Source of the DNA: an uncultured Gammaproteobacteria bacterium
GTDB taxonomy: Bacteria > Patescibacteriota > Microgenomatia > Daviesbacterales > UBA10151
Assembly: GCA_964393525.1 (NCBI GenBank)
Contig: CAYMTV010000002.1
Location: 23,001 to 87,000, forward strand
DNA: 64,000 nt
Direction of reading: 5' to 3'
Under the pieces are notes generated by a model. That model made no database searches. It had not been told where the DNA came from and was given only the letters and a program-made list of their open reading frames with translations. A program made the translations under genes and the position numbers. This document shows positions 1-42,381 of this stretch, one piece after another. Within the stretch, counting starts at the first letter, position 1, and each line of letters begins with the position of its first letter.

Positions 1-1970
1 CTTCGTCTGACCTCGTCAATATTGTGGTAGCCAAATTTCAGATTGTATTCTGGGTTTTGCAGTGCATACAACCACCTCATTACATCAACACCGGCTTTAT
101 CTGCCGCTTCGTTAAATTCTATAGCATTGCCTTTGGACTTGTGCATCTCTTCACCCTTTTCATCAACCACATTGGCAAAACCCAAGAGGTTTTTAAAAGG
201 ATAGGTCCGTTTAAGAGCAGTACTCATGGCAATCAGGGAATAAAACCAGTTTTTAAACTGACCGGGAAATCCTTCGGTTACAAAATCCGCCGGAAACCAA
301 CTAGCGGGCATAGTTGAAAAAGGGACAATTCCGGCATCAAGCCAAGGATTTCCAACATCAGGGATTCTGGAAACAATTTCGCCGCAATCCGGACATTTTA
401 TTTTTATCTGATCTATCCAGGGTCTGTGTGGAGAATTGCCTTCAAACTTATCCCAACCTAAAGTTGCTTGAGCCTTCAGCTCATCTTTCCCGCCTAAAAC
501 AGTAAACTTGCCGCATTTATCACATTCCCAGATTGGCAGCGCCAAGCCCCAAAATCTTTTTTTTGAGATCAGCCAGTCATGCATATTCTTAAGCCAGTCC
601 AGTTCCCGATCGTATCCCCATTTTGGCATCCAGTTAATATCTTTTACGACCTCAATCATCTGCTCCCTGTATGTTTTGCCGGAATCATCTTTAATATCCA
701 TTGCAATATACCACTCATCAACAACTCTCCAAACAAGCTCGGTTTTGCACCTCCAGCAGGTTGGATACCTGTGGGTATAATCTTCTGCTTTAAATAAAAA
801 TCCGTGCTTTTCCAAATACTCAATGATTGGTTCTCTTGCCTGCGTCACATTAAGCCCAGTTAGGAAATCAAAACCTTCTTCGTAAATTGCCTCTTCATTA
901 ATGGGTGCTACAACCGGAAGGTTATCTCTTTTGCCCAATGCAAAATCCTCTGTTCCCCCGCCGGTTGCAATATGTACTAAACCCGTACCTTCCTCGGTAG
1001 AAATGGGTAAAGTTAAAGGATCATTGGTAATTACCCTGTGGGTATAATTTTTAAATGCCTCTTTTACTGCGGGAAGATCATCAAACGGCCCGTCATAGGA
1101 AAGACCAATAAGCTCCTTACCTTTGTAGGTCTTAACAACTTTGCCGGAAACTAAATCTTTTTTCTCAAAAACTACCATATACTTATCACCTTCTGATTCC
1201 ACTTCGACATACTTAAAGTTTGGATCGACAGCAACGGCAACATTTGCCGGGATTGTCCAGGGGGTTGTGGTCCAAACCAGAAGATAAGTATCCTTTTTTC
1301 CCTTTACAGGAAGTTTAAAATAAACAGATTTATGGGTTAATTCTTGATATTCTTCAGTCAAAATCTCATGTTGGGAGATGGCTGTACCACAGCGCGGACA
1401 CCAAGGCACAGAATCTCTTCCTTTATATAACCAGCCTTTTTGATGGACGGTTTTTAGATATTTCCATATCCAGTAGTTATTTTCCTCTGAAGAAGTATGA
1501 TAAGAATTATCCCAGTCCATAAAGTAACCAAGTCTTTTTGATTGTTCTGTCTGAATGCCAGAGAATTTTTTTACCCTTTCCTTGCAGAGGTTAATAAATT
1601 TTTCCAAAGAGGCAAATTTATCGCCGGGGACCAGATTCTCAATATCTTTTTTGGTTTTTAAACCCAGCTCTTTTTCGACTTCTACTTCAACCCAGAGACC
1701 CTGTTCGTCAAAACCGTTCTGAAAACGCTGCCTAAACCCGCGCATATTATAAAAACGCTGGAAGACATCCTTGTAGGTTCTACCCCAGGCATGGTGCACA
1801 CCCATGGGGTTATTGGCGGTAATTGGTCCGTCCAAAAAGGAGAATTTATGGTCAGAATCCTGGTTTTTTTCTAAGTACTTCTCAACAATACCCTCCTTGT
1901 ACCAATAATCCAAAAGCTCTATTTCAAGAGCCGGGAAATCCACAGTTGATGAAACGGGCTTAAAACTCAT
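1..1970 (-). CDS. ileS: Isoleucyl-tRNA synthetase, N-terminal ~656 aa. The gene starts at 1970 and continues past the window start. It was missed by the ORF track because it has no stop inside the window.
   Basis: I translated the minus strand by hand: MSFKPVSS...LDGPITANNPMGVHHAWGRTYKD. This is a class I HIGH-region analogue with the IleS-type LDGPP-ANG spacing. The CP1 editing-domain motif WTTTPWTIPANVAVAV is IleS-specific. Zn-finger-like CWRC / CDKCG / CPDCG motifs are present. A KMSKS-region analogue GEEMHKSKGN lies near the window start (about nt 110-135). Confidence 0.75.
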   Translation of the reverse strand, partial: MSFKPVSSTVDFPALEIELLDYWYKEGIVEKYLEKNQDSDHKFSFLDGPITANNPMGVHHAWGRTYKDVFQRFYNMRGFRQRFQNGFDEQGLWVEVEVEKELGLKTKKDIENLVPGDKFASLEKFINLCKERVKKFSGIQTEQSKRLGYFMDWDNSYHTSSEENNYWIWKYLKTVHQKGWLYKGRDSVPWCPRCGTAISQHEILTEEYQELTHKSVYFKLPVKGKKDTYLLVWTTTPWTIPANVAVAVDPNFKYVEVESEGDKYMVVFEKKDLVSGKVVKTYKGKELIGLSYDGPFDDLPAVKEAFKNYTHRVITNDPLTLPISTEEGTGLVHIATGGGTEDFALGKRDNLPVVAPINEEAIYEEGFDFLTGLNVTQAREPIIEYLEKHGFLFKAEDYTHRYPTCWRCKTELVWRVVDEWYIAMDIKDDSGKTYREQMIEVVKDINWMPKWGYDRELDWLKNMHDWLISKKRFWGLALPIWECDKCGKFTVLGGKDELKAQATLGWDKFEGNSPHRPWIDQIKIKCPDCGEIVSRIPDVGNPWLDAGIVPFSTMPASWFPADFVTEGFPGQFKNWFYSLIAMSTALKRTYPFKNLLGFANVVDEKGEEMHKSKGNAIEFNEAADKAGVDVMRWLYALQNPEYNLKFGYHNIDEVRR

Positions 1971-2074
1971 GAGATGTATTGTAGAGGAATTATTTTAGTT
2001 GTTCAATATCAGGCTCTAGGTGAGTTGGTCGGGGATTGGCTATCAAGTCGTTCCATTTCTGCTATCTGCCATAT

Positions 2075-3271
2075 TTATCCTGCGGTTTTGCGAAGAAAGG
2101 CGGGGATCTCTAAATCATCAAAAGGTTCATCCGGCTCTTCGGGTCGTTCTGATATTCTTTTCTCTTCAGTTTCATCAGCAGAAGATGCTTGGGTGGTTGT
2201 AGCAGTTTGCGCAGGAAAAGACGGGTTTTGGGTAATTCCGGACATTATTGGATTTAAGGTTGCAGCACCCATTTGGTTGATTCGGTTAATCCCTGCATAC
2301 TCCCTGAGTCTTTCCCGGGTTTCATCAAACCCTGTGGCAATAACTGAGACTTTAACCATATCTACCAAGTCTTCTTTGATAGTTGCACCAAAGATGATAT
2401 TTGCATCAGGCTCAGCGGCTTGAGCGATAATTTGGGCCGCATCATTAACCTCGCTCATTGAAAGATCCGGACCACCTACAATATTGAACAAAATTCCCTT
2501 AGCTCCTTCAATTGAGATCTCAAGCAACGGTGAAGCAATAGCCATCCTGGCCGCTGTAGCAGCCCTATTTTCTCCTCCAGCCTGACCAATCCCCATCAAA
2601 GCCGAACCCGCATTGCTCATAATGGCTCTAACATCCGCAAAGTCTACGTTAATTAACCCAGGCATAGTAATTAGATCTGAGATTCCCTGGACTCCCTGAC
2701 CCAACACAGAATCTGCCAGCTTAAATGCTTCCTGTAAGGTCATGTTTTTATCAACTACCTCAAGTAACCTCTGGTTTGGAATAACAATTAACGCATCAAC
2801 CTTGTCCTTCAGCCTTTCTATACCTTCTTCGGCCACCAACATTCTTCTTGAGCCCTCAAACATGAAAGGTTTTGTGACAACAGCAACGGTTAAGGCTCCA
2901 AGCTGCTTGGCAACGGTTGCTGCGATGGGCGCGGAACCGGTACCCGTCCCCCCGCCCATTCCGGCAGTAATAAAAACCATGTCCGCATCTTGTAGAACAT
3001 CCTGAAGTTTTTGGGTTGATTCCTCAGCAGCCGCCTGACCGATCTCCCAATTCCCCCCTGAACCTAAACCTTTGGTCAAAGATTCACCTATTTGAACTTT
3101 AGTTGGAGCGGGATTCCCGAGCAATGCCTGGGCATCGGTGTTAACTGAAACAAAATCTACACCTTGGATCTGCTGAAGAGAAATCATTGAAGAAATCGCG
3201 TTTCCACCGCCACCTCCAAGGCCTAGAACCTTAATCTTAGCGAAGCGTTGGACATCTGGTTTAATTAACAT
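2075..3271 (-). CDS. ftsZ: Cell division GTPase FtsZ
   Basis: Tubulin/FtsZ signature GGGTGTG (ITAGMGGGTGTGSAPIAA), N-terminal GLGGGGGNA, and a low-complexity C-terminal tail. TAA stop. Confidence 0.97.
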   Translation of the reverse strand: MLIKPDVQRFAKIKVLGLGGGGGNAISSMISLQQIQGVDFVSVNTDAQALLGNPAPTKVQIGESLTKGLGSGGNWEIGQAAAEESTQKLQDVLQDADMVFITAGMGGGTGTGSAPIAATVAKQLGALTVAVVTKPFMFEGSRRMLVAEEGIERLKDKVDALIVIPNQRLLEVVDKNMTLQEAFKLADSVLGQGVQGISDLITMPGLINVDFADVRAIMSNAGSALMGIGQAGGENRAATAARMAIASPLLEISIEGAKGILFNIVGGPDLSMSEVNDAAQIIAQAAEPDANIIFGATIKEDLVDMVKVSVIATGFDETRERLREYAGINRINQMGAATLNPIMSGITQNPSFPAQTATTTQASSADETEEKRISERPEEPDEPFDDLEIPAFLRKTAG

Positions 3272-3340
3272 TTTGGATTAGGAGAATAGTTTGGGGGCAG
3301 TGTAGCACACCGTTTATTTAAGCGTCAATATAGCTCAAAA

Positions 3341-4633
3341 TTATGGGAGAAATGATTTGATCAGATCGGCCACTTTTTGAGTCACTGCTTTTAAAGGTAA
3401 CCCTTTCCCTAAAACCGGTAAACTCATTTCCGAACTTCCTGCCGATTTTGCGCCGTATAAAATCAGGCCGGCTGCAGTAGCAAAGACAGGAGAATCTATT
3501 TCATCAATTAGACCAAATAAACCATCTGTCTTGCCTATTCTCGAGGGAAACCCTAAAACAAACTTTGACTGTTCTAAAACTCCCACAGTTAGAGCTCCAC
3601 CACCGCAAAGAACCAGCCCCGAAGGAGTTTGGGTTCCAAATCCACTTTTTTTGATTTCTTTTCCGACATATTTAAAAATCTCCTGAATTCGCGGCCGGAT
3701 AATTCCGTCCACAACCGCTTTTCTTGAAACCTTTACATCATCTGGAATTCCTAGTGCGTTTAGGTCCAGTATATCTTCCTCTTTCTTTTTTTTCTCATCC
3801 AGCTTAAGAGGTTCCCTATCTTGAGGCATTGCCAAAACTTTTGGTTTTTCACCTAACTTTTGCTTAATAATCTCCGCCGACTCTAAAGAGACCCGTAGGC
3901 CGACTGCTATGTCTGAAGTTACATGCCGACCTCCCAAAGGAATAACCGAAGAATAAGCAATCGCTCCGTCAACAAAAATCACCACATCAGTTGTTTCACC
4001 ACCTATATCCACAAGGATCACTCCAAGCTCTTTCTCTGTCTCGGTTAAAACCGCCTGTGAAGAAGCAATCCCTGAAAAGACCAGTTCTTCAACATCAACT
4101 CCAACCATACCAACACATTTGGCCAGATTTCTCATTGAGGTTGTGGGACCGGTTACAATGTGGGTATCGGTTTCAAGCCTAACTCCGGTCATACCTATCG
4201 GGTCGGATATGCCCTCCTGGCCATCAACAGTAAAAGTTCTCGGGACAACATGGATAATCTCTCTTGAAGCTGGCAATGCAATTGCCCTGGCTGCTTCATT
4301 GACTCTTAAAACGTCATTTTCTTTTATTTCTCCACCCGGATGTGCAACAGCCACCACTGCATGTTGATTAATGCTTTCTATTTGTGGACCACCTACCGAA
4401 ACAAAGGCCGAAGATATGGAATAACCTGCCATTCTTTCGGCACTATCAACGCTGTCGGTTATGGCCTGAACTGCTGCCTCTATATCTACAATTTGACCTT
4501 TTTTTACACCCTTAGATGATGTTGCTGAAACACCAATCAGGTTTATCCTGTCTTCCTCACTTAAACTACCAATAAGTGTCGCTATTTTTGATGATCCAAC
4601 ATCAATTCCGCAAATAATTTTGTCCTTAGCCAT
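3341..4633 (-). CDS. ftsA: Cell division protein FtsA (actin-like ATPase)
   Basis: N-terminal phosphate-1 motif GIDVGSSKI, actin-fold layout, ~430 aa, immediately upstream of ftsZ in conserved order. Confidence 0.93.
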   Translation of the reverse strand: MAKDKIICGIDVGSSKIATLIGSLSEEDRINLIGVSATSSKGVKKGQIVDIEAAVQAITDSVDSAERMAGYSISSAFVSVGGPQIESINQHAVVAVAHPGGEIKENDVLRVNEAARAIALPASREIIHVVPRTFTVDGQEGISDPIGMTGVRLETDTHIVTGPTTSMRNLAKCVGMVGVDVEELVFSGIASSQAVLTETEKELGVILVDIGGETTDVVIFVDGAIAYSSVIPLGGRHVTSDIAVGLRVSLESAEIIKQKLGEKPKVLAMPQDREPLKLDEKKKKEEDILDLNALGIPDDVKVSRKAVVDGIIRPRIQEIFKYVGKEIKKSGFGTQTPSGLVLCGGGALTVGVLEQSKFVLGFPSRIGKTDGLFGLIDEIDSPVFATAAGLILYGAKSAGSSEMSLPVLGKGLPLKAVTQKVADLIKSFLP

Positions 4634-4768
4634 ATATTTTGGGCTTTTCTGTCAAACCTGAATCTAGTATGGAGTCACGTTACCGAAAAGCCCATTACAT
4701 AACGCGATCTATTAATTGAGTTAAATTTTTTAAGAGTTTCAAGTTGCTTGTATCTAAATTCTTCATTC

Positions 4769-5593
4769 TCAATTCTTTTTCTTGGGGGAGTAAATTACAA
4801 CCGGCTTATCAAAACGTAAGTCGATAAATTCTATCGGCTTTAAATCTATTGTAGCTTTTTGCAAGATTAGTTGTAAAGAGGCTAGTTGGCGGTTTATCTC
4901 TTTAGAAAGCGACAAAACCACATTTTGCTCACCACTAACAAAAAGCATGTCTTCTTTAACTGTTAATGTATTAAATGAAAAGTTTATACTTTTGATTATT
5001 GTTAAAGTTTTGGGGATAATCGAGTTTTCTATTATAAAAGCCTGCTTGCCAAAATTTACCAAATAAACTCTCGGAAGTCCTGCAAATTCAGAGAGCTCAT
5101 TTCCTAAAGATGAGATGATGAATCCGCTTTTATCTACCAAAACGCGACCGCTTTCCGTTGCAATTTCAATATCGAAACGGAAAAGTCCGGCTGTTGAACT
5201 GGCAGCAGAAGCTTCCGGTAAGTCAAGCTCAAGTTTTTTTTCTTTTTCAGTTGCAAATGTAACAATCATCTCAGGAACTCTTTCGTGCAAAGAAATCTCA
5301 AGCTTATCCGGGTAGATTTTTTTGATAGTTAAATTGTCCAAGCAAGAAAATTTTTGTTTGACTTTGGAAATTATTATTGATTCATCAATTAAAATTATAT
5401 TTTTACCCTTAAGATCCAAAAAGCCTTCAATAGAATTAGTGTTTGTACAACGTTTGAGATCACTTTTGAATCTAACCTCACTTACCTTTAACAAGTTTGT
5501 GTTAAAAAAAACAAAAAGTCCGAGAATAAAAAATACAAAAAACAAAAAGTATATTAAAGGCTTATTTGTTAATTTCCTTCTAAGATTTGGCAT
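4769..5593 (-). CDS. ftsQ: Cell division protein FtsQ/DivIB-like (single TM plus POTRA domain)
   Basis: N-terminal TM helix (LIYFLFFVFFILGLFVFF) followed by a POTRA-like segment (VSEVRFKS...KIYPDKLEISLHERVP). Sits between murG and ftsA. TGA stop. Confidence 0.65.
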   Translation of the reverse strand: MPNLRRKLTNKPLIYFLFFVFFILGLFVFFNTNLLKVSEVRFKSDLKRCTNTNSIEGFLDLKGKNIILIDESIIISKVKQKFSCLDNLTIKKIYPDKLEISLHERVPEMIVTFATEKEKKLELDLPEASAASSTAGLFRFDIEIATESGRVLVDKSGFIISSLGNELSEFAGLPRVYLVNFGKQAFIIENSIIPKTLTIIKSINFSFNTLTVKEDMLFVSGEQNVVLSLSKEINRQLASLQLILQKATIDLKPIEFIDLRFDKPVVIYSPKKKN

Positions 5594-6719
5594 AATTTTC
5601 GGAAGTTGTTAGAACAAGCTGGGCAATTCTTTTAGACGCATCCGGGATAACCAATTCTTTTGCAAGTTTGGCCTTTTCTATAAAACTATCAATCTCTTTT
5701 AACATTTCATAAACTGCTTTCAGAATGTGATCTGGATTGACCTTTTCTTGAGGTAGCACCCTGCATAGTCCTTTCTGGCTGAAAAACCTAGCATTTATTT
5801 CCTGCTCATTTCTAAACAAAAAAGGCAGAGGTATTACCAAAGACGGAATTCCAAAATACGCCAGCTCATAAAGAGTATTAATACCTGCTCTGGATATAAC
5901 AAGGCTAACATTTTTAAATATTACGGACATGTCCTTTGAATCAAACCATTTACTGACAAAGTATCTTTCTTTTTTTAAAAGTGAGCTCTTTTTCTCTAAA
6001 AGCTTTTCAAAGAAATTTTGTTTGGAATCGCCTGTTTGGTGTATCACAAAAAATTTATTTGTTAGTTCTTCCAGGATTGATTTAACACTTTTATTGACCA
6101 TATCCGAACCCTGATTTCCACCAGTGATATACAAAATCGGAAGCTTTTGATTTTTTGCTTGTTTAATAAATTCGGTTAATTCTTTTGACAAAGCAATATT
6201 AGGATTTAAAAGGTCTTTTCTAATCGGATTGCCAGTTAATATAAATTTGTAAGTGTCGAGCGGCTTTTCACTTTCAAAAGTAATAGCCACTTTATCTGCA
6301 AAAAAACGACCAATTGAATCTGCCAAACCCGTAATTAAAGTTTGTTCATGGGTAATAATTGGGATGGATAAGATCCAACCGCAAAGTACAACCGGGACAC
6401 TAACATATCCTCCAAAAGAGATAATTATATCCGGTTTTTCTTTTAATAAAATGAAAAAAGATTGCACAAAACCTATCGGAATTCTTAAAAGCGACAAAAT
6501 AGTATAAAAATCCCAAACCCTTCTCAGTCTTCCGGCAATAATCGGAATAAATTTGACTCCAAGTTTTGGGAGCACCTGTGATTCAACAGAAATTGACGGA
6601 TCACCTTCCTGGGTGTACTTTCTTCCAACATAAACAATTTGGATACCAGAAAATTTCTTTAGTTCCTCAATAACTGCCTGTGCCGGAGTAAAATGTGCCC
6701 CGGTAAATATTACCTTCAT
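5580..6719 (-). CDS. murG: UDP-GlcNAc:lipid I N-acetylglucosaminyltransferase MurG (GT28)
   Basis: N-terminal KVIFTGAHFTPAQAV, GGYVSVPVV and ITGGNQGS motifs; GT-B fold; dcw position. Confidence 0.9.
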   Translation of the reverse strand: MKVIFTGAHFTPAQAVIEELKKFSGIQIVYVGRKYTQEGDPSISVESQVLPKLGVKFIPIIAGRLRRVWDFYTILSLLRIPIGFVQSFFILLKEKPDIIISFGGYVSVPVVLCGWILSIPIITHEQTLITGLADSIGRFFADKVAITFESEKPLDTYKFILTGNPIRKDLLNPNIALSKELTEFIKQAKNQKLPILYITGGNQGSDMVNKSVKSILEELTNKFFVIHQTGDSKQNFFEKLLEKKSSLLKKERYFVSKWFDSKDMSVIFKNVSLVISRAGINTLYELAYFGIPSLVIPLPFLFRNEQEINARFFSQKGLCRVLPQEKVNPDHILKAVYEMLKEIDSFIEKAKLAKELVIPDASKRIAQLVLTTSENYAKS

Positions 6720-6744
6720 TATTAAAGTATATCAAAGTCAAACT

Positions 6745-7866
6745 TCAAGGGGCCTTTGCAGATTTTGAGATATTGAATAAAATACCTATTGCCACAAGAT
6801 TTGAAAGTAGAGCCGAACCGCCATAAGAAATAAATGGCAAGGGAACCCCGGTAAGAGGGATTAAAGCTACCATTGCTCCCAAGTTGATTGAAGACTGAAT
6901 TGCCAACCAAAAAGTAATACCAAAGGCCAGCAGTTTCCCAAAATTATCTTCGGCGTTTATTGCTATATAAAAACCGCGGTAAATAATAAAAGCTATCAAT
7001 CCAATCAGGATTAAGCTGCCTATAAAACCAAACTCCTCCCCAACGATTGCAAATATGGAGTCAGTTGTAACTTCGGGGATATATTCAAATTTCTGCCTGG
7101 ATTGACCCAATCCCAACCCAAAGATTCCGCCGCTTCCGATTGCCATAAGAACTTGAGAAATATGGTAGGAGAACCCCTGAGGGTCTGCAAAGGGATCCAA
7201 AAACGCCAATATTCTTTGTTTTCTGTAGGATGATGAAATTACAAAAAGCCAAAAACCGATGAAAGACATGGGTATAAGGGCAATAAAGTAAAATACATTT
7301 GCCCCAGCTACCAAAAACATTGCCAGCGATGTCAGGAAAAACACAATAGTAGTACCTAAATCCTTCTGAAATAACCCTATTATCAGTGAAATCAAAAAAA
7401 CAATTATTGCAAAAGGTAAAGGCCTAGCCCTTTTTTCAAACAAAGTTGCCAAAAAAATAATTGTCGTAAGTTTAATTATCTCGGCAGGTTGAATAGTCAG
7501 ATTGCCTATTTTCAACCACCGGTGGGCACCCCCGGCTGCAGTACCAAATCCGGGGATTAATACCGCAATTAAAAGCAATAAGGATAAAATAAAAATTACA
7601 AAAGCTATTTTCTTAAAGTTGTGGTAATTAAAAAAAGAAAAAAAAGTTAACCCGGTGAGTCCTAAAATAACCCAAATCAATTGCTGTTTAATATAAAAAT
7701 ACTTATCTCCAAAATCTTTATGAGCCTGGATGACTGATGCATCATAAACCATCATGAGTCCAAATCCAACTAAGAATAATATTCCCAAAAGAAGCGGGTA
7801 ATCTAATTTCTTTTCCTGAGTCTTAGTTGAAACCCGTGAGCCGGGTGGAACCTTCATTCTTCTCAT
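6745..7866 (-). CDS. ftsW: SEDS-family peptidoglycan glycosyltransferase FtsW
   Basis: About 10-TM polytopic protein of FtsW/RodA type located between mraY and murG. TGA stop. Confidence 0.88.
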   Translation of the reverse strand: MRRMKVPPGSRVSTKTQEKKLDYPLLLGILFLVGFGLMMVYDASVIQAHKDFGDKYFYIKQQLIWVILGLTGLTFFSFFNYHNFKKIAFVIFILSLLLLIAVLIPGFGTAAGGAHRWLKIGNLTIQPAEIIKLTTIIFLATLFEKRARPLPFAIIVFLISLIIGLFQKDLGTTIVFFLTSLAMFLVAGANVFYFIALIPMSFIGFWLFVISSSYRKQRILAFLDPFADPQGFSYHISQVLMAIGSGGIFGLGLGQSRQKFEYIPEVTTDSIFAIVGEEFGFIGSLILIGLIAFIIYRGFYIAINAEDNFGKLLAFGITFWLAIQSSINLGAMVALIPLTGVPLPFISYGGSALLSNLVAIGILFNISKSAKAP

Positions 7867-7890
7867 TAGAATTTAATGGTAGCAGAAAAA

Positions 7891-8898
7891 TTACTTGGAA
7901 AGGAGAGCCAGCCATAATCCTAAAATTGCGAAAATGCTGCCAGCCAACCAAAACCTCATTACAATTTTTGGTTCTTCCCATCCAATGTATTTAAAATACA
8001 TATGGATCGGTGCAACCTCAAACAACTTTTTTTTGAAAACCTTTTTCCAGAAAATCTGTAAGAAGGAGGAGGCAACAATTATAATATACATACCTCCAAT
8101 AATTCCCAAAGCAATGATTTTTCCGGTAAGTAACCCGACAACCGCTAAAGTTGCTCCAAAGGCAAACCCCCCGGCATCACCCAAAAAAATCCTCGCCGGA
8201 TAAATATTAAAATAGAGATAGGCAAACAGGGAACCTACCCAAATGCCGATAAAAGCGGCTAAATTTAAATCCAAATTCGTCGAAGCAAGAGCCAAAAGTG
8301 CAAACAGACAAATGGTTAAAAGACCAGTTGATAATCCATCTAAACCATCGGAGATATTATATGCATTAGAGAAAGCTACTATTAAAAAAGCTGCTAAGGG
8401 AATATACCAATAGCCTATGATCAGATTACCAATGCCGGATATATAAACATTGTTTAAACCGACAAAATAGTATAACATTGCTCCAATTAGCAGGGCAAAC
8501 AATATCTGAATAGCCAATATCGCTTTTCGGCCAAGACCCAGAAATTTTCCCCTTCTCTTAGTAAAAATCCATCTGATATCATCAACCAGTCCCAATCCTC
8601 CGAATGATAAAAGAGTAAATAGAAGTATTCCTAAATAAGTTGTGTCCGGAGTAACAGTAATTTTTGCATAAGCCATACTAAGTACCGTCAAAATAACTAT
8701 CAGTAAAATACCCCCTCCACTTGGGGTATTTTCATCTCCTTTCATCAAAGCATCATGAATTGGATTCTCGGATGATTTTTTTAAAGGACCTAACTTTTCA
8801 AATTTTCTTTTCAGATAAAAAAGTAAATCTATAAAGGGCACCATAAAAAATGAGGTGATAGCAAAAGATATTAAAACTAAACCTAGTAAATTTACCAT
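7891..8898 (-). CDS. mraY: Phospho-N-acetylmuramoyl-pentapeptide transferase MraY
   Basis: MraY motifs NAYNISDGLDGLSTG, LGDAGGFAFG and APIHMYF; polytopic. Confidence 0.95.
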   Translation of the reverse strand: MVNLLGLVLISFAITSFFMVPFIDLLFYLKRKFEKLGPLKKSSENPIHDALMKGDENTPSGGGILLIVILTVLSMAYAKITVTPDTTYLGILLFTLLSFGGLGLVDDIRWIFTKRRGKFLGLGRKAILAIQILFALLIGAMLYYFVGLNNVYISGIGNLIIGYWYIPLAAFLIVAFSNAYNISDGLDGLSTGLLTICLFALLALASTNLDLNLAAFIGIWVGSLFAYLYFNIYPARIFLGDAGGFAFGATLAVVGLLTGKIIALGIIGGMYIIIVASSFLQIFWKKVFKKKLFEVAPIHMYFKYIGWEEPKIVMRFWLAGSIFAILGLWLALLSK

Positions 8899-10175
8899 TA
8901 AATTTTTTTATGTTTTGAGATCTTTTTTACCACTTCATCAAGTCTTTGATCTAACCCTCCATTAAATAAAACAATATCACCCTTCGCCAAAATACTAAGA
9001 AGTGTATTTACAAGCTGAGGGTTCGTTAAATTAGTTCTTAGCTTCTCCTTTAAAAACCCCAGTTTATTAAGTTCATCTGCTATATACTTGTGAGATTGAC
9101 CCATCAAAAAAACCAGATCAATTTTATCTTTATATAATACTCTGGCTATTTCTCTTTTAATCTTCTCATGCGTTTCCCCCGGTATCAAGTCTCCTAGTAT
9201 CAAGATCCTTCTTCTAGCACTAACAATATTTAATGTTTCAAGAGCATATTCGAAGGATAATAGTTCCTCCTCTTTAGTATTATCGATGATTAAGGAATCA
9301 CTGTATCCGGGACAAAGCTGCATAATATGATCTAATTGATCAATTCCCTCCAGTATTTTTTTAATCTTTATCAAAGGTATATTAAAACTTACCCCAAGTG
9401 AGGCTGCGCCCAAAAGAGCATACAATTGGTGTTTGCCTAAAATTCTCGAATTAACCTCCACCCTTTCAACACCGTAATTTAATTCAAACTTCACTGCATA
9501 ATTTTCGACCCTAATGTTCCCGGCCCAAACCGAACAAGTTTCAGCACCTAAACCGAATGTTAATACTTCAAATGGATATTCCTGGCGAACTCTTTTAGAA
9601 ATAGCCTCATCGCCATTTAAAATAACTACACCGTCTGAGGGTACATTTTTAAAAACTTTTTGGAAAAGCTGAAAGTTTAGATCAGCTTCCTTCCCGTCCT
9701 CGAAGCGGCTTGGGTTGAAATTGGTGACTAGAACTGTTTTTGCTTTTATCAGGCTGGAGTAGTAATCAATAAAATCCTCTGTTTCCTGATATATTCTGTA
9801 AATAAGATTATGCTCTCTAACAGGGGATTTTAAGATATCCGAAATTAATTGTGACTTAGGATCTATTCTAGGATTGTTTTCATTTGACGCTAAATAAGTT
9901 TCGCTAAACTTTGAAATTACAAAAAATGCAGCTTTTGTAGTAAGTTTGCTTGATAAGTTGCCTGCAATTGTAATAAGCCTTGAGGGCGAAATGAGTTTTA
10001 TATACTGCCGGGCAATAAAATTCTTAGCAGTATTAGTTTTATTTCCGAAGGAAAGAGACCGAATGGACTCATTTCCGAAGGAAAGAAGCCGACTTAATAA
10101 ACTTCGACCATTCTTGGTTGAGGAGGCTTCATTTTTAATAAATTCTGATGCTTTTGGATCCAATAAGTTTATCAT
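8898..10175 (-). CDS. Mur ligase family protein, MurF-like, with a divergent ATP-binding loop
   Basis: Central and C-terminal Mur ligase motifs align with E. coli MurF (GKHQLYALLGAASLG ~ GRHNIANALAAAAL; ILILGDLIPGE...LMGQSHKYI ~ VLVVGDMAELG...SVGKQSH). The P-loop is ITIAGNLSSKLTTK instead of TGSSGKTS. The N-terminus carries an in-frame 30-bp tandem duplication (about nt 10043-10102). Confidence 0.6.
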   Translation of the reverse strand: MINLLDPKASEFIKNEASSTKNGRSLLSRLLSFGNESIRSLSFGNKTNTAKNFIARQYIKLISPSRLITIAGNLSSKLTTKAAFFVISKFSETYLASNENNPRIDPKSQLISDILKSPVREHNLIYRIYQETEDFIDYYSSLIKAKTVLVTNFNPSRFEDGKEADLNFQLFQKVFKNVPSDGVVILNGDEAISKRVRQEYPFEVLTFGLGAETCSVWAGNIRVENYAVKFELNYGVERVEVNSRILGKHQLYALLGAASLGVSFNIPLIKIKKILEGIDQLDHIMQLCPGYSDSLIIDNTKEEELLSFEYALETLNIVSARRRILILGDLIPGETHEKIKREIARVLYKDKIDLVFLMGQSHKYIADELNKLGFLKEKLRTNLTNPQLVNTLLSILAKGDIVLFNGGLDQRLDEVVKKISKHKKI

Positions 10176-10179
10176 ACTT

Positions 10180-10794
10180 TTAATACGCCTTAACCTTAAG
10201 TATTGCTGATATTACAACCTGTCCGTATCTTTTTAAATCCTTGAGTTTACTATCAAAAATCTCTCCATCCTCCCAAATTTTGATATTACTGACAATTTCT
10301 TCAAACTGGGGATCTATTAGAAGGCTTCCGCCTAAAGTTGCCTTAAGCGAACTGAACCCCTGAAATTTCTTAAGGTGTTGTTCACTTAAAAAATCGTTTA
10401 ATTTGGATAAACTTACTCCAGAATCCACCTCTATCAGTGCTTCTTCAATCCCTAAACCCCCTCTACCAATCTTCCCTTTAATACCGCTAATCTTAATGGC
10501 ACTGGTTCTGTTTCGTATAACCAAACCTTTCATTCCTTTTTCGGAAATGAGAATTTTGGTTCCATTTCCAAAAACAAACAGTGGAAGTTTTAACTCATAA
10601 CCTGTATTTAAAATATTTATCAATTCTTTTTGGGTTGTCGCAATATAAAATATTTCTGCAGGTCCCCCAAGTTTTGAAAAAGTATGATACTTCAAAAGTT
10701 CGTCAATTTTAATTCTTTCTATCCCAAAGATTTGGATTAAAATATTAATCTTACTTTGGTAATTTGTCTGACTTGGGGGTTTGAGTTTATCCAT
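10180..10794 (-). CDS. MurB-like FAD-binding domain protein (UDP-N-acetylenolpyruvoylglucosamine reductase homolog). It is truncated and lacks the C-terminal substrate-binding domain.
   Basis: FSKLGGPAEIFY ~ MurB TFRIGGPADYF; LPLFVFGNGTKILI ~ IGNGSNLLV; SLKATLGGSLL ~ GIPGTVGGAV. Only ~205 aa versus ~300 for MurB. I moved the start to the MDKLK methionine so it does not overlap murE. Confidence 0.55.
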   Translation of the reverse strand: MDKLKPPSQTNYQSKINILIQIFGIERIKIDELLKYHTFSKLGGPAEIFYIATTQKELINILNTGYELKLPLFVFGNGTKILISEKGMKGLVIRNRTSAIKISGIKGKIGRGGLGIEEALIEVDSGVSLSKLNDFLSEQHLKKFQGFSSLKATLGGSLLIDPQFEEIVSNIKIWEDGEIFDSKLKDLKRYGQVVISAILKVKAY

Positions 10795-10796
10795 AA

Positions 10797-12005
10797 CTAT
10801 TCCAAGGCAATTTTGACTGCCTCTAAATCCGACCAAGGGATCTCTTTTTTTCCATTCAAATTCATGCTTGTTTCGTGTCCTTTGCCAAAAATACCAACCG
10901 TATCTCCTCTATCGGCTAATTTATTGATTGCTAACTCTATCGCTTTTTGTCTGTCCAGCTCAATAAAATAGGTTTTACCAAAAGTTGCCCCAGCTCTTTC
11001 TAGACCTTGTGCAATCTGCTTGTTGATTTGATCAATCAGTCCCCTGGGGTCTTCGGCTGTAACAATGGTAACATCGGAAAGCTTACCCGAGATTTCTCCC
11101 ATCAGTGGTCTTTTTTGTTCATCCCGCAAACCGGCACAACCAAAAACTGAGATCAATTTACCTTTTGTTTTTCTTCTTAAAGCTTTTAGCGCACTTTCCA
11201 ATCCATTCGGTGTATGGGCAAAATCAATTACTATCTTTATTCCTATATTATTTTCAATCTCCTGCATCCTTCCGGCTAGGGATTTAAAGAGGGCAAGAGT
11301 TTGTTTAATTATTTTTGTTTCAATCTTCAAAGTCACTCCAACCGCAGAAGCTGCTAAGGCATTTAGCAAATTAAATTCTCCGGGCAGGGAAAGCTTAAGT
11401 GGAAATTTTATCGGATTAAACTCTGCTGATTTGGATAATCCAAAACTCAAAACTTTACCTCTGGTTTGTCCGGAGAGTCGCTCAAAGTGTTTTTCACTCC
11501 TATTTAATATGGCTGTTTTGACATTTTTGATCAATTTAGCCTTCGCCTTAAAGTAATTTTCAAAAGATTTGTGGTAATCAAGATGCTCGTGGGTAATATT
11601 GGTAATTACGCCAACCTCAAAGTGAATTCCCCAGAATCTATGCTGATCTAAGGCATGGGATGTAGCTTCCAAAACCATATACTTACTTTCCATATTTACT
11701 GCCTGCCCCAGAAACTTTTGTACATCCATCGGACTTGGAGAAGTAACATGGAAGCCGGTATCATAAACTTGATCACCAATAATGGCATTTATTGTTGAAA
11801 CCATGGAAACTTTTTTCCCTGCGGCTTTCAGGATTTGGTAAATCATATTGGTAGTTGTAGTTTTGCCGTCGGTCCCGGTAACCCCGATAACCTTAAGTTT
11901 TCTGGAAGGAAAACCATATCTTAAGTTTGCCAAAATTGCCACCGGCAAGTGCCAAAAAGTATTGATGAATTTTTGCGGCAACAATTTTCTAAGTAAGCTT
12001 ATCAT
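10797..12005 (-). CDS. murE: UDP-MurNAc-tripeptide synthetase MurE-like Mur ligase, lacking the usual N-terminal domain
   Basis: P-loop GVTGTDGKTTTT at residue ~40; MurE-type GKGHE (IFGKGHETSMN) and an EDPRG analogue of the DNPR motif; FAHTPNG. Confidence 0.7.
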   Translation of the reverse strand: MISLLRKLLPQKFINTFWHLPVAILANLRYGFPSRKLKVIGVTGTDGKTTTTNMIYQILKAAGKKVSMVSTINAIIGDQVYDTGFHVTSPSPMDVQKFLGQAVNMESKYMVLEATSHALDQHRFWGIHFEVGVITNITHEHLDYHKSFENYFKAKAKLIKNVKTAILNRSEKHFERLSGQTRGKVLSFGLSKSAEFNPIKFPLKLSLPGEFNLLNALAASAVGVTLKIETKIIKQTLALFKSLAGRMQEIENNIGIKIVIDFAHTPNGLESALKALRRKTKGKLISVFGCAGLRDEQKRPLMGEISGKLSDVTIVTAEDPRGLIDQINKQIAQGLERAGATFGKTYFIELDRQKAIELAINKLADRGDTVGIFGKGHETSMNLNGKKEIPWSDLEAVKIALE

Positions 12006-12089: not shown

Positions 12090-12155
12090 CTGTTGGAGCA
12101 ATTCCGTAATGAGCAAAGCTCTTACTTCATTGCTCTGTTGGAGCAATTCCGTAAT
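12090..12155. repeat. 21-bp direct repeat (ctgttggagcaattccgtaat) present twice. One copy lies inside the ftsI 3' end (12135-12155) and one in the downstream untranslated region (12090-12110).
   Basis: Exact 21-mer seen twice, 45 bp apart. Confidence 0.8.
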
Positions 12156-13911
12156 AGATAAAAAGGTCTCTGGCGATTTCAAAAAAAGTCGGGGCTGCGG
12201 TTTCCGCACCATAAATGGATGAGGTTGGTTGGTCGTAGCGCACCAGCATAACAAATTTAGGATCATCGGCCGGTGCAAACCCGACAAATGAAGCAATGGT
12301 TTTGCTAGGATCATAATGTCCGGCAACCGGAATTTGAGCTGTACCGGTTTTTCCAGCGATTTTATAGCCCATTACATTATGTAGTTTTTTGGCAAATTTT
12401 GCCTCTCCATCATCAACTGCTTTCACCATCATTTCGGTTATTTCTTTTGCTGTTTCAGGATTGATAGGCGTAGAGATTATCCGGGGACTTATGGTATAGA
12501 TGCCTTTTTCGTCCATTATTTTGGAAACTATGTGCGGTTCCAAAAGTTTACCTCCATTGGCAATTGCCCCAACTGCCCTGATAACCTGCATCGCAGTTAC
12601 AGAAATACCCTGACCAAAGGATGCGGTTGCCTGATCGATTTCTTTCCATGTGTCTTTTTCCCTTAAAGGAGGCGAGGTCTCGTCTTCTAAGTCGATACCT
12701 GTTGTATTTCCAAAACCAAAATCTTTAATGTATTTATAGAACTTTTCAATACCAAGCTTTTTAGAAACAAATACCATTCCGGTATTATCTGAATGAACGA
12801 TTACATCGGTCATTATTAAATCAGGCCGGTACTGGTTATTCCAGGTTCGGATGGTAAACCCTCCAATATTAATGGGTCCCTGGCAAATATCACATTTTGT
12901 GTCTTTTTTAATGACCCCCTCATTAATTCCCGCAGCCATTACCAATACCTTAAAAGTTGACCCCGGTTCATACCCGTCTACGGTAATAGGATTTTTTAAG
13001 CTTTCTTCGGGATACTCTGAAGGTTTTTGGGGGTCATAACCAGGGTAGGAAGCCATCGCCAAAATATTGCCGGTTTTTGGTTCTAAAACAACCGCCGAGG
13101 CTCCTTTGGCTCCATATTTTTCTAACCCTTTTTTTATTTTTTCTTCAACGATATATTGAATACTCCTGTCTATATTTAGAATTAAGTTTTTTCCCGATGT
13201 TGGCTTTTTAGAAAGAAATTTACCGATTAAAATGGGCAGTCCCAAGGCATCTTTTTCCTGGATAACTTCGCCTTTTTTGCCCCCTAATTCACCGTTATAG
13301 TATCCTTCAATACCATGATAACCTTTATCATTGCCATATAAATCAGCAGCTACAAACCCCAAAAGATGCGCTGACGATGACCCTTCCGGATAAAGCCTGG
13401 ATGAACTTGCATCAAATCCGATTCCGGTTAAATTTAGATCTTCAATTTTTTTCTTAGTTTCAAGATCTACTTTTTTTACAAGACTTACCCAAGAAAGGTT
13501 TTTTAAAAGTTTGGTGTGAAGTGCCTCTTCCAGATCTTTGATCTGTTTTATTCTAATATCCGGCTCAATTTCTTTACCTTTGTTTTCTTCTTCCCAGAAA
13601 ATTATGGATAATTTTTGAGCATAATCTCTGACAAAAGTTTTAAAATCATCATCTGATATCTTTTTGTCCTTTTTTATAAGTAACGGCTGGGCAAAAACAA
13701 GATAAGAGGGTTTATTGGATGCTAAAACAGAATTGTCCGAAAATAAAATCTTACCCCGCAAGCCGCTCACCTCTTTGGTTGTCACCCTTTGCCCTTCTGC
13801 CCTGGCAGTTAATTCATCCGCCTTTATTATCTGCCAGAAAGCCAGGCGTACAATAATCAGGATCACCAAAAGAAAATAAATGCTCCTAATTATTTTTAAT
13901 CGGTTTTGCAT
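12127..13911 (-). CDS. ftsI: Penicillin-binding protein 2/3 (FtsI-type class B transpeptidase)
   Basis: N-terminal TM; active-site SXXK (STFK), SXN (SDN), KTG (KTGTA); PBP dimerisation region. Confidence 0.9.
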   Translation of the reverse strand: MQNRLKIIRSIYFLLVILIIVRLAFWQIIKADELTARAEGQRVTTKEVSGLRGKILFSDNSVLASNKPSYLVFAQPLLIKKDKKISDDDFKTFVRDYAQKLSIIFWEEENKGKEIEPDIRIKQIKDLEEALHTKLLKNLSWVSLVKKVDLETKKKIEDLNLTGIGFDASSSRLYPEGSSSAHLLGFVAADLYGNDKGYHGIEGYYNGELGGKKGEVIQEKDALGLPILIGKFLSKKPTSGKNLILNIDRSIQYIVEEKIKKGLEKYGAKGASAVVLEPKTGNILAMASYPGYDPQKPSEYPEESLKNPITVDGYEPGSTFKVLVMAAGINEGVIKKDTKCDICQGPINIGGFTIRTWNNQYRPDLIMTDVIVHSDNTGMVFVSKKLGIEKFYKYIKDFGFGNTTGIDLEDETSPPLREKDTWKEIDQATASFGQGISVTAMQVIRAVGAIANGGKLLEPHIVSKIMDEKGIYTISPRIISTPINPETAKEITEMMVKAVDDGEAKFAKKLHNVMGYKIAGKTGTAQIPVAGHYDPSKTIASFVGFAPADDPKFVMLVRYDQPTSSIYGAETAAPTFFEIARDLFIYYGIAPTEQ

Positions 13912-13981: not shown

Positions 13982-14293
13982 TTAATGATTAAGAGCCAAT
14001 TCCAGCTCTTTTAAAAATTCTATCTTGCTTACTTTAACAAAACCTAATTTCTTCGCTTTATTTTCAATATTAATTAAAGAGGCTTCGTCGGAAATTTTAT
14101 TTTCCAATATCTGATTTTCCAGCTGTAAAGCCTGTTTAGCAATTTCGATCTTACTGATCTCTACTCCGTAAGTAGCAAGTCTGTTCAGTGACCAAATCTC
14201 CAAGATAGCAAGAGGTATAAGAATCAAAAGCATTAAAAAAAATGCTTTCCTTTTGGTAGTAAATGAGCTGTTTAATGATTTTAGAAGTTTCAT
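13982..14293 (-). CDS. ftsL: FtsL-like small bitopic division protein
   Basis: About 100 aa with a single TM (AFFLMLLILIPLAILEIW) followed by a coiled-coil-like segment. Lies between mraZ and ftsI. I chose an internal Met start to avoid overlapping mraZ. Confidence 0.5.
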   Translation of the reverse strand: MKLLKSLNSSFTTKRKAFFLMLLILIPLAILEIWSLNRLATYGVEISKIEIAKQALQLENQILENKISDEASLINIENKAKKLGFVKVSKIEFLKELELALNH

Positions 14294-14679
14294 ACGTTTC
14301 CAGAGATTATTTGCTTCCATTTTTTGGGATTCCACAATTCAAAGTGATCACCCGCACCGATAAAAAGAACTTCCTGAAAGATTTGAGCAAAGATTATCAG
14401 GGAAGGGTCAATAATAAATCTCCCCTGATAATCAAGCTCACATTTTTGGGCTGATCCAAACAACTGGCGGCGCAAAAACCTGCCTTTTTCTTCAATCATC
14501 GGTATCTCAAGCTGTTTTCTTGCCTCCGCCTCCCAATCCTTCAAAGAAAATCCCCAGATACAACCATCCAAACCTTTTGTTAAAATAATTTCACTGCCTG
14601 ATATCTCTTCCCTGAACTTTTTAGGTAAAATTATGCGATTTTTTCCGGAAAAACGCGTCCTGTAAGTGCCCAAAAACAT
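14290..14679 (-). CDS. mraZ: Transcriptional regulator MraZ
   Basis: Two MraZ-type repeats with the DxxGR pattern (FLGTYRTRFSGKNRIILP; LDYQGRFIIDP). First gene of the dcw operon. TGA stop. Confidence 0.85.
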   Translation of the reverse strand: MFLGTYRTRFSGKNRIILPKKFREEISGSEIILTKGLDGCIWGFSLKDWEAEARKQLEIPMIEEKGRFLRRQLFGSAQKCELDYQGRFIIDPSLIIFAQIFQEVLFIGAGDHFELWNPKKWKQIISGNV

Positions 14680-14887: not shown

Positions 14888-15757
14888 TTAATTGGAGGCG
14901 CGTAAAACGGCGAAGATTCCGGCTCCGGAAGCCTGGACTTTGAGTAAATTACCGTCAATTTTTGTATTTAGCTCTTCCCACTTATTGTCTGCCTCCACAT
15001 ACCTGTAGATCTTAGCATCCACTCCAGGTTTATCAACAAGCTCAATCATCACATCACCTTTGGGAAATGTCTTTGTGATCGGCAGATTAAATGCATAGAC
15101 ATTTCCAACTACTTGCTTTCCTTCTGGTAGTTTTGGCGAACCGATCAAATCATGAACTAAGCTAAAGGCTACTGTAGCCAACTCTTCCCTCTCAGCTTTT
15201 GTTTCATATTTAAAATGATCCTCACTTGAGGTAATCTTACCTAAGGCTACGTCCGGTTTTTGCAGATGCCAGGTAGTCTTTACAACATAAGCTTTTTTGT
15301 CCTTTTTAAAGCGTAGTATTAAATTACCATTCTCTACCCCTTTGTCAAAGACACAATGCTCATTGCCCGTAGAAAACCCCTGGGAACAAGTCCCAAGTAA
15401 AATTTCCTGTTCATGATCACCTTTGCCTTTTTCCACCTTAACCCAGGTATTTAAGTCTCCCGCCCCACGCTCTATTCCTTCTTCATCCGAATAGGAAATT
15501 TGATAAGAAAAAGCTTCATATTCCGAAATCCGGAAAATATTTAAGTTTATGGCATTTCCGTCTCTTCGAGGAATCAACATGGCATAAGGCCCATCAGGAT
15601 TAAAGGTAAGTTCAATTTCTTCCAAAACTTCCGGACCCTTAGGGGAAAGGAATATTTTCCAGATACCAAACATAGCAGTACCTAAAATTAAGGTTAAAAT
15701 TACAACAAGGATTAAATTTGTGCGGTTTGCGAGGAATGCTTTGAGTTTTTCAATCAT
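14888..15757 (-). CDS. Hypothetical membrane-anchored extracytoplasmic protein
   Basis: N-terminal TM anchor followed by a ~250 aa soluble domain. No family motif recognised. Confidence 0.5.
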   Translation of the reverse strand: MIEKLKAFLANRTNLILVVILTLILGTAMFGIWKIFLSPKGPEVLEEIELTFNPDGPYAMLIPRRDGNAINLNIFRISEYEAFSYQISYSDEEGIERGAGDLNTWVKVEKGKGDHEQEILLGTCSQGFSTGNEHCVFDKGVENGNLILRFKKDKKAYVVKTTWHLQKPDVALGKITSSEDHFKYETKAEREELATVAFSLVHDLIGSPKLPEGKQVVGNVYAFNLPITKTFPKGDVMIELVDKPGVDAKIYRYVEADNKWEELNTKIDGNLLKVQASGAGIFAVLRASN

Positions 15758-41671: not shown

Positions 41672-42381
41672 TTATTATACCTGTTTATAACGAAGAAATG
41701 TTGATTGGCAAAACAATCAGTTCTGTAGCCTCTGCAGATTCTCTTAATATGGTTAAAGAAATTATAGTGGTTGATGATGGCTCGGTTGATAAGACCAAAG
41801 AGGTAACAGAATCATCGATAAAAGATCATAAAAAAGAGAAGTCTTTAATATTCAAAACAATCTTCAGGCCGGAAAATTCCGGTAAAGGCGCCAGTGTTAA
41901 AGAGGGTATACTTGCATCCACCGGAGACATCATCATAATCCAAGATGCTGATTTAGAGTACAATCCGGAAGATTACCCATTACTTCTGGAACCCTTCATA
42001 AGAAATCAGGCCGATGTGGTTTATGGATCAAGATTCATCTCTAATAGACCACACCGCGTTTTATATTTTTGGCATTATGTAATCAATATGGCTTTAACAA
42101 CTTTTTCCAATATGTTAACCAACTTAAACTTAACCGATATGGAAACAGGTTATAAAGCCTTTAAAGGGGAGCTTATTCGGAAAATTTCCAAGGATTTGGA
42201 GAGTAAAAGGTTTGGCTTTGAACCTGAAGTTACGGCAAGATTGGCAAAAATTAAAGGCATTAAGTTCTTTGAAGTTGGAATTTCTTATAGTGGTAGAACT
42301 TACGAGGAGGGTAAAAAAATTGGTTGGGTGGATGGGATGAGGGCCATATGGGAGATAATTAAATTCAATTTGTTTGCTTAA
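41644..42381 (+). CDS. Polyprenol-phosphate glycosyltransferase (GT2, DPM1/GtrB/ArnC-like)
   Basis: LSIIIPVYNEE...VVDDGSVDKT; DADLEYNPED (DxD motif); ~240 aa soluble GT-A of the Dpm1 type. Confidence 0.8.
   Translation: MYNLMQKLSIIIPVYNEEMLIGKTISSVASADSLNMVKEIIVVDDGSVDKTKEVTESSIKDHKKEKSLIFKTIFRPENSGKGASVKEGILASTGDIIIIQDADLEYNPEDYPLLLEPFIRNQADVVYGSRFISNRPHRVLYFWHYVINMALTTFSNMLTNLNLTDMETGYKAFKGELIRKISKDLESKRFGFEPEVTARLAKIKGIKFFEVGISYSGRTYEEGKKIGWVDGMRAIWEIIKFNLFA

Follow-up and report, generated by a model that had tools for sequence, protein, structure and literature searches.

Shortened MurE, MurB and MurF proteins in the division and cell-wall operon of a Daviesbacteria-like bacterium

The operon and its three short Mur proteins

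The 64-kb stretch of DNA analysed here (the window) comes from a metagenome-assembled genome (MAG) and carries, on its minus strand, a compact division and cell-wall (dcw) operon in which three consecutive genes encode shortened relatives of the enzymes MurE, MurB and MurF. Few bacterial pathways are as well conserved as the synthesis of peptidoglycan precursors, and to our knowledge every solved MurB, MurE and MurF has the domains that these proteins lack. The core order of the operon is FtsI-MurE-MurB'-MurF'-MraY, where the primed names stand for the MurB-like and MurF-like proteins. The murE gene (10797-12005, minus strand) encodes 402 residues that comprise the central and C-terminal domains only, murB' (10180-10794, minus strand) encodes 204 residues with domains 1 and 2, those that bind flavin adenine dinucleotide (FAD), and nothing further, and murF' (8898-10175, minus strand) encodes a 425-residue orthologue of MurF that is devoid of domain 1. 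An earlier note, made from the DNA letters of this stretch, had called all three enzymes degenerate and the precursor pathway remodelled or partly decayed.

The nearest relatives of these genes are found in other MAGs, many of them labelled Candidatus Daviesbacteria and others Microgenomates, Patescibacteria or something different. Because FtsZ of the window is 67-88% identical to that of these relatives, and because of the labels that the nearest of them carry, the organism is by sequence a Daviesbacteria-like member of the Microgenomates, within the candidate phyla radiation (CPR, or Patescibacteria). Many of the related MAGs (L002-L004, L008, L011 and others) carry the deposit title 'uncultured Gammaproteobacteria bacterium'; the dcw operons in them plainly belong to the Daviesbacteria/CPR type, and these records are likely mislabelled.

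The comparison set consisted of 72 loci (L002-L073) recovered by a profile scan of species-representative genomes with the MurF' family as query. A short MurB' (~194 aa) and a short MurF (~398 aa) lie between FtsI and MraY in all 72 related species, and a MurE of ~400 aa precedes this block in 71 of them. The remaining locus, L002 (CAYMIA010000011.1, ~1871-6549), has no MurE in the cluster; there, FtsI is followed by MurB', a 323-aa open reading frame (ORF) on the opposite strand, and MurF. The truncations are thus mostly lineage architecture and not the decay of a single genome, and the suggestion that the pathway has been remodelled holds, mostly at the level of the lineage. The earlier note had allowed that its reading would fail if close relatives with demonstrated peptidoglycan carried the same variants; 72 related species do carry them, although peptidoglycan has not been shown experimentally in those relatives. 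A full-text literature search on Daviesbacteria, Microgenomates, Patescibacteria or CPR together with Mur found no description of the truncated forms. A survey of dcw and Mur genes states that CPR were omitted (PMC8871954), and a study of Mur proteins nowhere mentions Patescibacteria (PMC10214165).

That the truncations were produced by mis-assembly, a frameshift or mis-delimited ORFs is an explanation to be weighed for a MAG, and the starts of MurE and MurB' are each ambiguous by 14-24 codons (for MurB', the start supported by homologues is the ATG at 10794, which gives 204 aa, and a TTG at 10836 would give 218 aa). We consider it effectively refuted. The proteins are identical in a second, independent assembly of the sample (Logan), with the murF' ORF intact in both, which makes assembly error unlikely; gene sizes and junctions are alike in the 72 species; and AlphaFold2 returns confident models of compact truncated folds. 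Nor can any mis-delimited ORF supply the missing domains, an outcome that the earlier note had allowed for, since the ORFs are maximal and abut one another. The murB'/murF' junction is 4 nt long (10176-10179, minus strand), the murF' stop and the mraY ATG overlap as TAATG, and only 121 nt separate murE, itself a maximal ORF, from ftsI. Separate encoding of MurB domain 3, or of domain 1 of MurE or MurF, in adjacent ORFs was considered and rejected, the ORFs abutting and tblastn giving no match.

Catalytic sites of MurE, MurB' and MurF'

MurE should not be called degenerate, because it passes the curated cut-off of its family (367.6 bits with TIGR01085 against a cut-off of 257.3, matching from about profile position 89) and its catalytic motifs are conserved; on this point the earlier note was mistaken. 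The P-loop GVTGTDGKTTT and the motifs LEATSH, THEHLDYH, KAKAKL, FNLLNALAA, DFAHTP, EDPR and GKGHE are all present, and across 67 orthologues they are conserved with conservative variation only, GKGHE being invariant. The same note was right that the N-terminal domain, which binds uridine diphosphate (UDP), is missing: the best match in the PDB, MurE of Thermotoga maritima (4bub), aligns over residues 90-476 only. MurE therefore belongs to a domain-1-less, normal CPR type that looks active and is predicted to be catalytically competent.

This short form is common. Among the best 150 cluster representatives of MurE at 50% identity, 87 are without domain 1 (median 429 aa) and 44 have it, and the named sources of short MurEs include Levybacteria, the Microgenomates group and other Patescibacteria; two names that are cut short appear to stand for Eisenbacteria and Saccharibacteria. 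In those CPR lineages the short MurE adjoins a full-length MurC (401 bits, above the cut-off) and MurA, and at one locus, L086, the order is FtsI, MurE (392 aa), MurB (322 aa, full length, with the MurB_C domain), MurF (373 aa, also short), MraY, MurD and FtsW. Since they occur together with full-length MurC, MurA, MurD and MurB, domain-1-less MurE and MurF are ordinary components of otherwise canonical CPR pathways.

The specificity motif of MurE deserves comment. DNPR is the MurE motif for meso-diaminopimelate, and T. maritima MurE, with DDPR, adds L- or D-lysine. The window protein has EDPR (VTAEDPRG, residues ~318-324) and the lineage has V/E-DPR. Because the motif is EDPR and not DNPR, and most resembles the DDPR of T. 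maritima, the third residue of the stem peptide is uncertain.

The case of MurB' is different in kind. FAD_binding_4 is its sole Pfam match, and it falls well below the cut-offs of both MurB models of the pair TIGR00179/NF010480: the NCBIfam MurB model gives 67.4 bits against 259, over profile positions 14-136 of 303, and the second model gives 30.2 against 144.5. The AlphaFold2 model has a mean predicted local distance difference test (pLDDT) of 90.8, its best fold match is Staphylococcus aureus MurB 1hsk (template modelling (TM) score 0.72 by query and 0.50 by target), and its leading structural matches are MurB enzymes, over their two FAD-binding domains only. When MurB' was aligned with canonical MurB and with the full-length CPR MurB of L086, it was found to end at the boundary of domains 2 and 3, so that the Ser of GSxFKNP and the C-terminal Glu are missing; an 11-residue deletion takes out the Arg of YRxS, the NAGAxG loop is also deleted, and GSN has become GTK. 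A CPR-specific hairpin insertion is common to MurB' and the full-length MurB of L086, on which basis MurB' can be regarded as a truncated orthologue of the latter. By sequence, then, MurB' is the positional orthologue of full-length CPR MurB without domain 3 and without the catalytic Arg, Ser and Glu, and it is probably not a reductase. The earlier note had described the missing C-terminal domain correctly and had assumed the FAD-binding domains to be kept; their fold is kept, but two of the three FAD-contact motifs in the window protein are changed (GxGSN and PG[ST]xGG), GGxA alone being retained.

The protein database contains this MurB-like family only as proteins of 185-219 aa, in 56 clusters; the mean column identity of the family alignment is 55%; and K106-G107-K108 and S125-G126 show little or no variation, as does most of GIEEA. 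From this we infer that MurB' has a conserved function other than classical MurB catalysis.

MurF' has lost more of its active site than any of its orthologues. At the P-loop position, where 58 of the 72 orthologues have G[ST]VGKT, the window protein reads GNLSSKLTT (residues 72-80; 9936-9962, minus strand), just as the earlier note had reported, which relative to the family motif GSVGKTT amounts to G75S, K76S and T77K. Further catalytic sites are lost within 9663-9797 (minus strand): the Mg-binding Glu is replaced by Arg127 (E127R), the His by Arg157 (H157R), and the Lys that corresponds to the carbamylated Lys of Mur ligases by Phe171 (K171F). The DDxYN motif is lost as well (D299N, Y301K). 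MurF' thus keeps one of nine key catalytic positions, the worst of 72, the next worst species keeping three, and 61 of the 84 family columns that are at least 90% conserved, again the lowest value (other species, 82-100%; median 96%). These losses are unevenly placed: 10 of 35 highly conserved positions are kept in residues 26-175 versus 77 of 97 in residues 176-425 (Fisher p = 1.5e-7). As judged from the alignment, the loss is confined to the half that binds adenosine triphosphate (ATP), and the later part of the central domain and the C-terminal domain are conserved.

The affiliation of MurF' is nevertheless plain, even though it scores 91.8 bits with TIGR01143 against a cut-off of 288.6 (typical members of the lineage reach E = 1.4e-88). 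The family profile matches residues 99-446 of Escherichia coli MurF 1gg4 (E = 4.6e-50), which places the loss of domain 1 at the level of the whole lineage, and AlphaFold2 predicts a two-domain MurF fold whose top Foldseek matches are MurF (4qf5, TM 0.73). The short MurF of most species keeps GSVGKTT, LEMG.E, AHSE, EKGK, DDTYN and GEMRELG; this protein looks active, and MurF' is its positional orthologue by sequence. Milder erosion of MurF, mapped on a neighbour-joining tree of seven dcw proteins, is seen on several separate branches, including that of L011, the sister of the window. The mean identity of MurF' to its orthologues is 36%, versus 55% among the others (a ratio of 0.66), where the neighbouring dcw proteins have ratios of 0.85-1.02. 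The ORF has no stop or frameshift in 425 codons of 35% GC DNA. Because the nearest relative is only ~40% identical in MurF', synonymous sites are saturated. Taken together, the substitutions make MurF' a probable pseudoenzyme. A correlated acceleration of MurB' and MurF' across species was looked for and set aside, as the correlation, besides being confounded by sampling and phylogeny, is weak (Spearman 0.37, p = 0.008).

The N-terminus of MurF' holds a further peculiarity. The 30-bp tandem duplication proposed in the earlier note is in frame and has a 30-nt period, but it is partial and lies at 10032-10091 (minus strand), where RLLSFGNESI and RSLSFGNKTN follow each other as residues 29-48; a seed-based repeat finder located cores of 22 nt (10041-10062 and 10071-10092, 91% identical), which Tandem Repeats Finder missed. 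The duplication sits in an N-terminal insertion found in no homologue, and AlphaFold2 models residues 1-44 as disordered, with pLDDT below 50 for residues 15-44.

Elsewhere in the Microgenomates, MurF-like ligases of 444 aa (L083, 8330-9664) and 541 aa (L084, 14751-16376) carry only the Pfam M and C domains of Mur ligases. The genes for these two occupy different operon positions. As these ligases differ in both build and position, turnover of the D-Ala-D-Ala-adding enzyme is suggested.

The condition of both proteins varies with a neighbouring gene. In 43 of the 72 relatives (for example L003, L005 and L007, at ~6600-7900) an intact murA encoding 419 aa lies between murB' and murF, and at the same junction murA is absent from the window and from 29 other loci. 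The MurA of these relatives has K22, R120, D305 and R397, with Asp in place of Cys115, the target of fosfomycin. In MurB', the GGxA motif is present in 40 of 42 species with an adjacent murA and in 11 of 29 without; for GxGS the corresponding figures are 37 of 42 and 11 of 29, and for PG[ST]xGG they are 35 of 42 and 4 of 29. The presence of murA, which tracks a deep split in the lineage, is also linked to the integrity of MurF (Fisher p = 0.027, uncorrected for phylogeny). The KGK hairpin, GIEEA and DSG are conserved in the examined MurB' representatives of both murA groups. Any flavin-dependent role of MurB' appears from these patterns to be tied to MurA and to be decaying in the clade of the window. 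In the Levybacteria-like loci L082, L084 and L085, a gene for a 246-253-aa NTP_transferase protein lies downstream of murA and is followed in some loci by GlmS; this protein could be GlmU-like or MurU-like (N-acetylmuramic acid (MurNAc)-1-phosphate uridylyltransferase), the latter being relevant to precursor salvage.

These observations bear on the idea that MurB' and MurF' are still enzymes, working through non-canonical residues or a partner, with MurB' for instance reducing an enolpyruvyl product held by MurA. The murA gene with intact residues directly downstream of murB' in 43 of the 72 species, the retention of the FAD motifs where murA is adjacent and the full set of ligase motifs in the short MurF of most species all fit such an idea, and in the sister clade the domain-3-less MurB' might reduce the enolpyruvyl intermediate while bound to the adjacent MurA. 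For the window it is very improbable, as murA is found neither in the cluster nor elsewhere in the window, the FAD motifs are altered, MurF' is without the P-loop Lys, both Mg ligands and the counterpart of the carbamylated Lys, and the catalytic Arg, Ser and Glu of MurB are missing across the entire MurB' family.

It may also be asked whether the stem peptide is built or edited on a lipid-linked or other non-nucleotide intermediate, as MurT acts on lipid II. All three proteins are without precisely the domain that binds the UDP substrate, MurT (also domain-1-less) is among the structural and sequence matches, and the cluster has neither murC nor murD. We hold this to be improbable nonetheless. 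Sister lineages pair short MurE and MurF with full-length MurC, MurD, MurA and MurB, and therefore imply an ordinary UDP-linked pathway; the closest families are by a wide margin MurE and MurF, not MurT, the NCBIfam MurT model matching 7 of 23 members of the short-MurF family weakly and with a similarity far below that to MurF; a Pfam scan found no GatD-like partner gene nearby; and MraY is well conserved.

The rest of the operon and of the window

The genes on either side of the three show none of this erosion. Upstream, ftsI (12127-13911, minus strand) encodes a class B penicillin-binding protein with intact SXXK, SXN and KTG motifs; downstream, mraY (7891-8898, minus strand) retains its catalytic DD, NxxDGxDG and His motifs; and the conserved motifs of ftsW (6745-7866, minus strand) and murG (5580-6719, minus strand) are likewise intact. 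Since the motifs of FtsI, MraY, FtsW and MurG are intact in the window and also in lineages with an eroded MurF, the membrane steps of wall synthesis are, to judge from sequence, intact. The minus-strand operon further comprises MraZ (14290-14679), a small FtsL-like ORF between MraZ and FtsI, and FtsQ, FtsA and FtsZ, the FtsZ end of the operon being at 2075-3271. Downstream of ftsZ, an ORF for isoleucyl-tRNA synthetase (1-2074, minus strand; more than 660 aa visible) runs off the start of the window, and upstream of the operon are GlyRS, RecO and a DUF4012 protein.

A conserved 289-aa protein (14888-15757, minus strand), which has a membrane anchor at its N-terminus and matches no Pfam family, is located between GlyRS and MraZ, as it is in most related loci. 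MraW/RsmH is encoded at 21700-22632 on the plus strand, ~7 kb away from the operon, and in 41 related loci a presumed mraW (~304 aa) lies between mraZ and the FtsL-like ORF. The region 17273-64000 is occupied by a very large envelope-glycan (glycosyltransferase/polysaccharide) cluster with more than 15 glycosyltransferases, together with PMT-like and PIG-V-like mannosyltransferases, Wzy-like and Wzx-like proteins, an ABC-2 exporter and a DegT aminotransferase. Seven of its ORFs, of 380-726 aa, have no Pfam match (26279-27421, 35588-37432, 39977-41671, 42378-44153, 47798-49579, 55067-57247 and 57244-59379).

The window was also searched for the enzymes that the operon does not encode. Pfam scans covering window ORFs of at least 120 aa, together with tblastn using MurA, MurC and MurD of CPR bacteria, found no murA, murC or murD in the 64 kb, which bears out the earlier statement that murC and murD are absent from the cluster; the Pfam scans found no second Mur ligase in the window either. 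A stand-alone MurB C-terminal domain (MurB_C) was found neither in the window by tblastn nor in the 72 loci. The Pfam scans of the window did not find ddl, for which no specific search was made. Neither the 64-kb window nor the 8 kb flanking the cluster on each side in the 72 genomes contains a second copy of murB or murF. Taken alone, a cluster devoid of murC, murD and ddl is uninformative. The alternative raised in the earlier note, a non-canonical stem peptide, is possible but draws no support from these data.

Possible roles of MurB' and MurF'

The word 'decayed' fits two of the three proteins, the ATP site of MurF' being lost and the catalytic residues of MurB' gone with its FAD motifs eroding; it does not fit MurE, which is intact. 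We propose, with a probability slightly above even (roughly 0.55), that peptidoglycan is still made, that MurB' and MurF' persist as non-catalytic partners, and that the missing chemistry comes from elsewhere. Peptidoglycan would still be assembled at the membrane, MurE would be the sole working enzyme of the three, and MurB' and MurF' would be kept as scaffold or ligand-binding partners of the Mur/MraY machinery, where the ligand could be the precursor or its peptide and the scaffolded partners could be MurE and MraY. The formation of UDP-MurNAc and the addition of D-Ala-D-Ala would be supplied by genes elsewhere or by host-derived precursors. A scaffold role is plausible because physical association of adjacent Mur proteins has been documented, MurE-MurF chimeras being the precedent (PMC10214165).

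The main rival holds that canonical murB and murF (with murA, murC, murD and ddl) lie elsewhere in the genome and that MurB' and MurF' of the operon, under relaxed selection and without function, are being lost. MurF catalytic sites erode on several branches, MurF' of the window diverges faster than its neighbours, and the several MurF forms and positions in other Microgenomates suggest gene turnover, all of which would suit leftovers. Against this, MurB' of 185-219 aa is maintained in 72 of 72 species and 56 database clusters, with 55% mean column identity and conserved family motifs, and in MurF', whose ORF is unbroken, 79% of the positions conserved in the family survive in the C-terminal 60%; neither the window nor the 8-kb flanks of the cluster in the 72 genomes yielded a second copy. 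The order-wide conservation of MurB' and the domain pattern of MurF' argue against redundant leftovers, and we regard this explanation as possible but doubtful.

Several points weigh against the proposal of non-catalytic partners. A second murF, a full-length murB, murA, murC, murD and ddl may be present elsewhere in the genome, in which case MurB' and MurF' would be redundant leftovers after all. The loss of catalysis in both proteins is itself inferred from residues and domains. The links of murA to the FAD motifs and to MurF integrity carry no correction for phylogeny and for the most part trace a single deep split, and the murF' ORF could owe its retention in part to translational coupling with mraY through the overlap of stop and start. 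Finally, if MurE is active, its substrate is still made, which counts against a pathway based purely on salvage.

There is also a bolder version of our proposal, in which the clade of the window no longer makes UDP-MurNAc-pentapeptide de novo and the dead MurB' and MurF' are scaffold or ligand-binding subunits of a membrane-associated MurE/MraY complex that finishes or re-uses host-derived precursors. The loss of murA, of the flavin site of MurB' and of the ATP site of MurF' may be the basis for such a state, but we think it unlikely.

Most of the features first seen in this stretch are conserved peculiarities of CPR bacteria or of Daviesbacteria. What is truly unusual is that MurB' has been stripped of its catalytic residues, that its FAD motifs are coupled to murA, and that the ATP site of MurF has died repeatedly, this genome being the most extreme case. 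Throughout a CPR lineage MurB is kept with neither its substrate domain nor its catalytic residues, and MurF has repeatedly lost its ATP site, with transpeptidase, flippase/polymerase and MraY intact. This might mean that there are unrecognised modes of recognising UDP-sugar substrates, that Mur complexes contain pseudoenzyme subunits, or that episymbionts depend on wall precursors from their hosts; host dependence, if true, bears on which needs of CPR bacteria are supplied by their hosts, and offers concrete genes with which to approach that question. As automatic annotation names these proteins MurB and MurF, metabolic reconstructions that report 'complete' peptidoglycan pathways for such genomes may be wrong.

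Comparison with known systems places each protein close to a characterised enzyme and sets it apart. MurE shares all catalytic motifs with T. maritima MurE (4BUB) and its domain-1-less form with the short MurE of Levybacteria and other CPR groups, but differs from all solved MurE structures in being without the ~90 N-terminal residues of domain 1. MurB' resembles type II MurB (S. aureus 1HSK) in its N-terminal 80 residues and in the fold of its two FAD-binding domains; it differs in the absence of domain 3, of the catalytic Arg, Ser and Glu and of the NAGAxG loop, in having GTK for GSN, and, in the clade of the window, in the loss of PG[ST]xGG. MurF' is closest to MurF (E. coli 1GG4) by profile and fold, occupies the same position between murE and mraY and shares the central and C-terminal fold, but the UDP-binding domain 1 is absent throughout the Daviesbacteria-like lineage and the window protein has in addition lost DDxYN, the Lys of the P-loop, both Mg ligands (Glu and His) and the counterpart of the carbamylated Lys. 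MurT, of the MurT/GatD lipid II amidotransferase, is likewise a relative of Mur ligases that has no domain 1 and no UDP-linked substrate; it has, however, a DUF1727 domain and needs GatD, whereas MurF' has Mur_ligase_C and the operon contains no GATase gene by Pfam.

For a non-catalytic role there are two parallels. The MurE-MurF chimeras and Mur complexes (Bordetella pertussis 8F5D; PMC10214165) are a precedent for the association of adjacent Mur proteins, but in them both halves are active enzymes. The other parallel came from the PDB matches, which include PAP11, the MurE-like subunit of the plastid-encoded RNA polymerase (8W9Z chain N; 8R5O chain Q). In plants, PAP11 has a Mur-ligase fold that is retained in a structural role, without catalysis. 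MurF' would resemble it in the retention of a non-catalytic Mur-ligase fold; PAP11 is eukaryotic, derived from MurE and part of a transcription complex, whereas MurF' stays in a cell-wall operon, and no evolutionary link between the two is implied.

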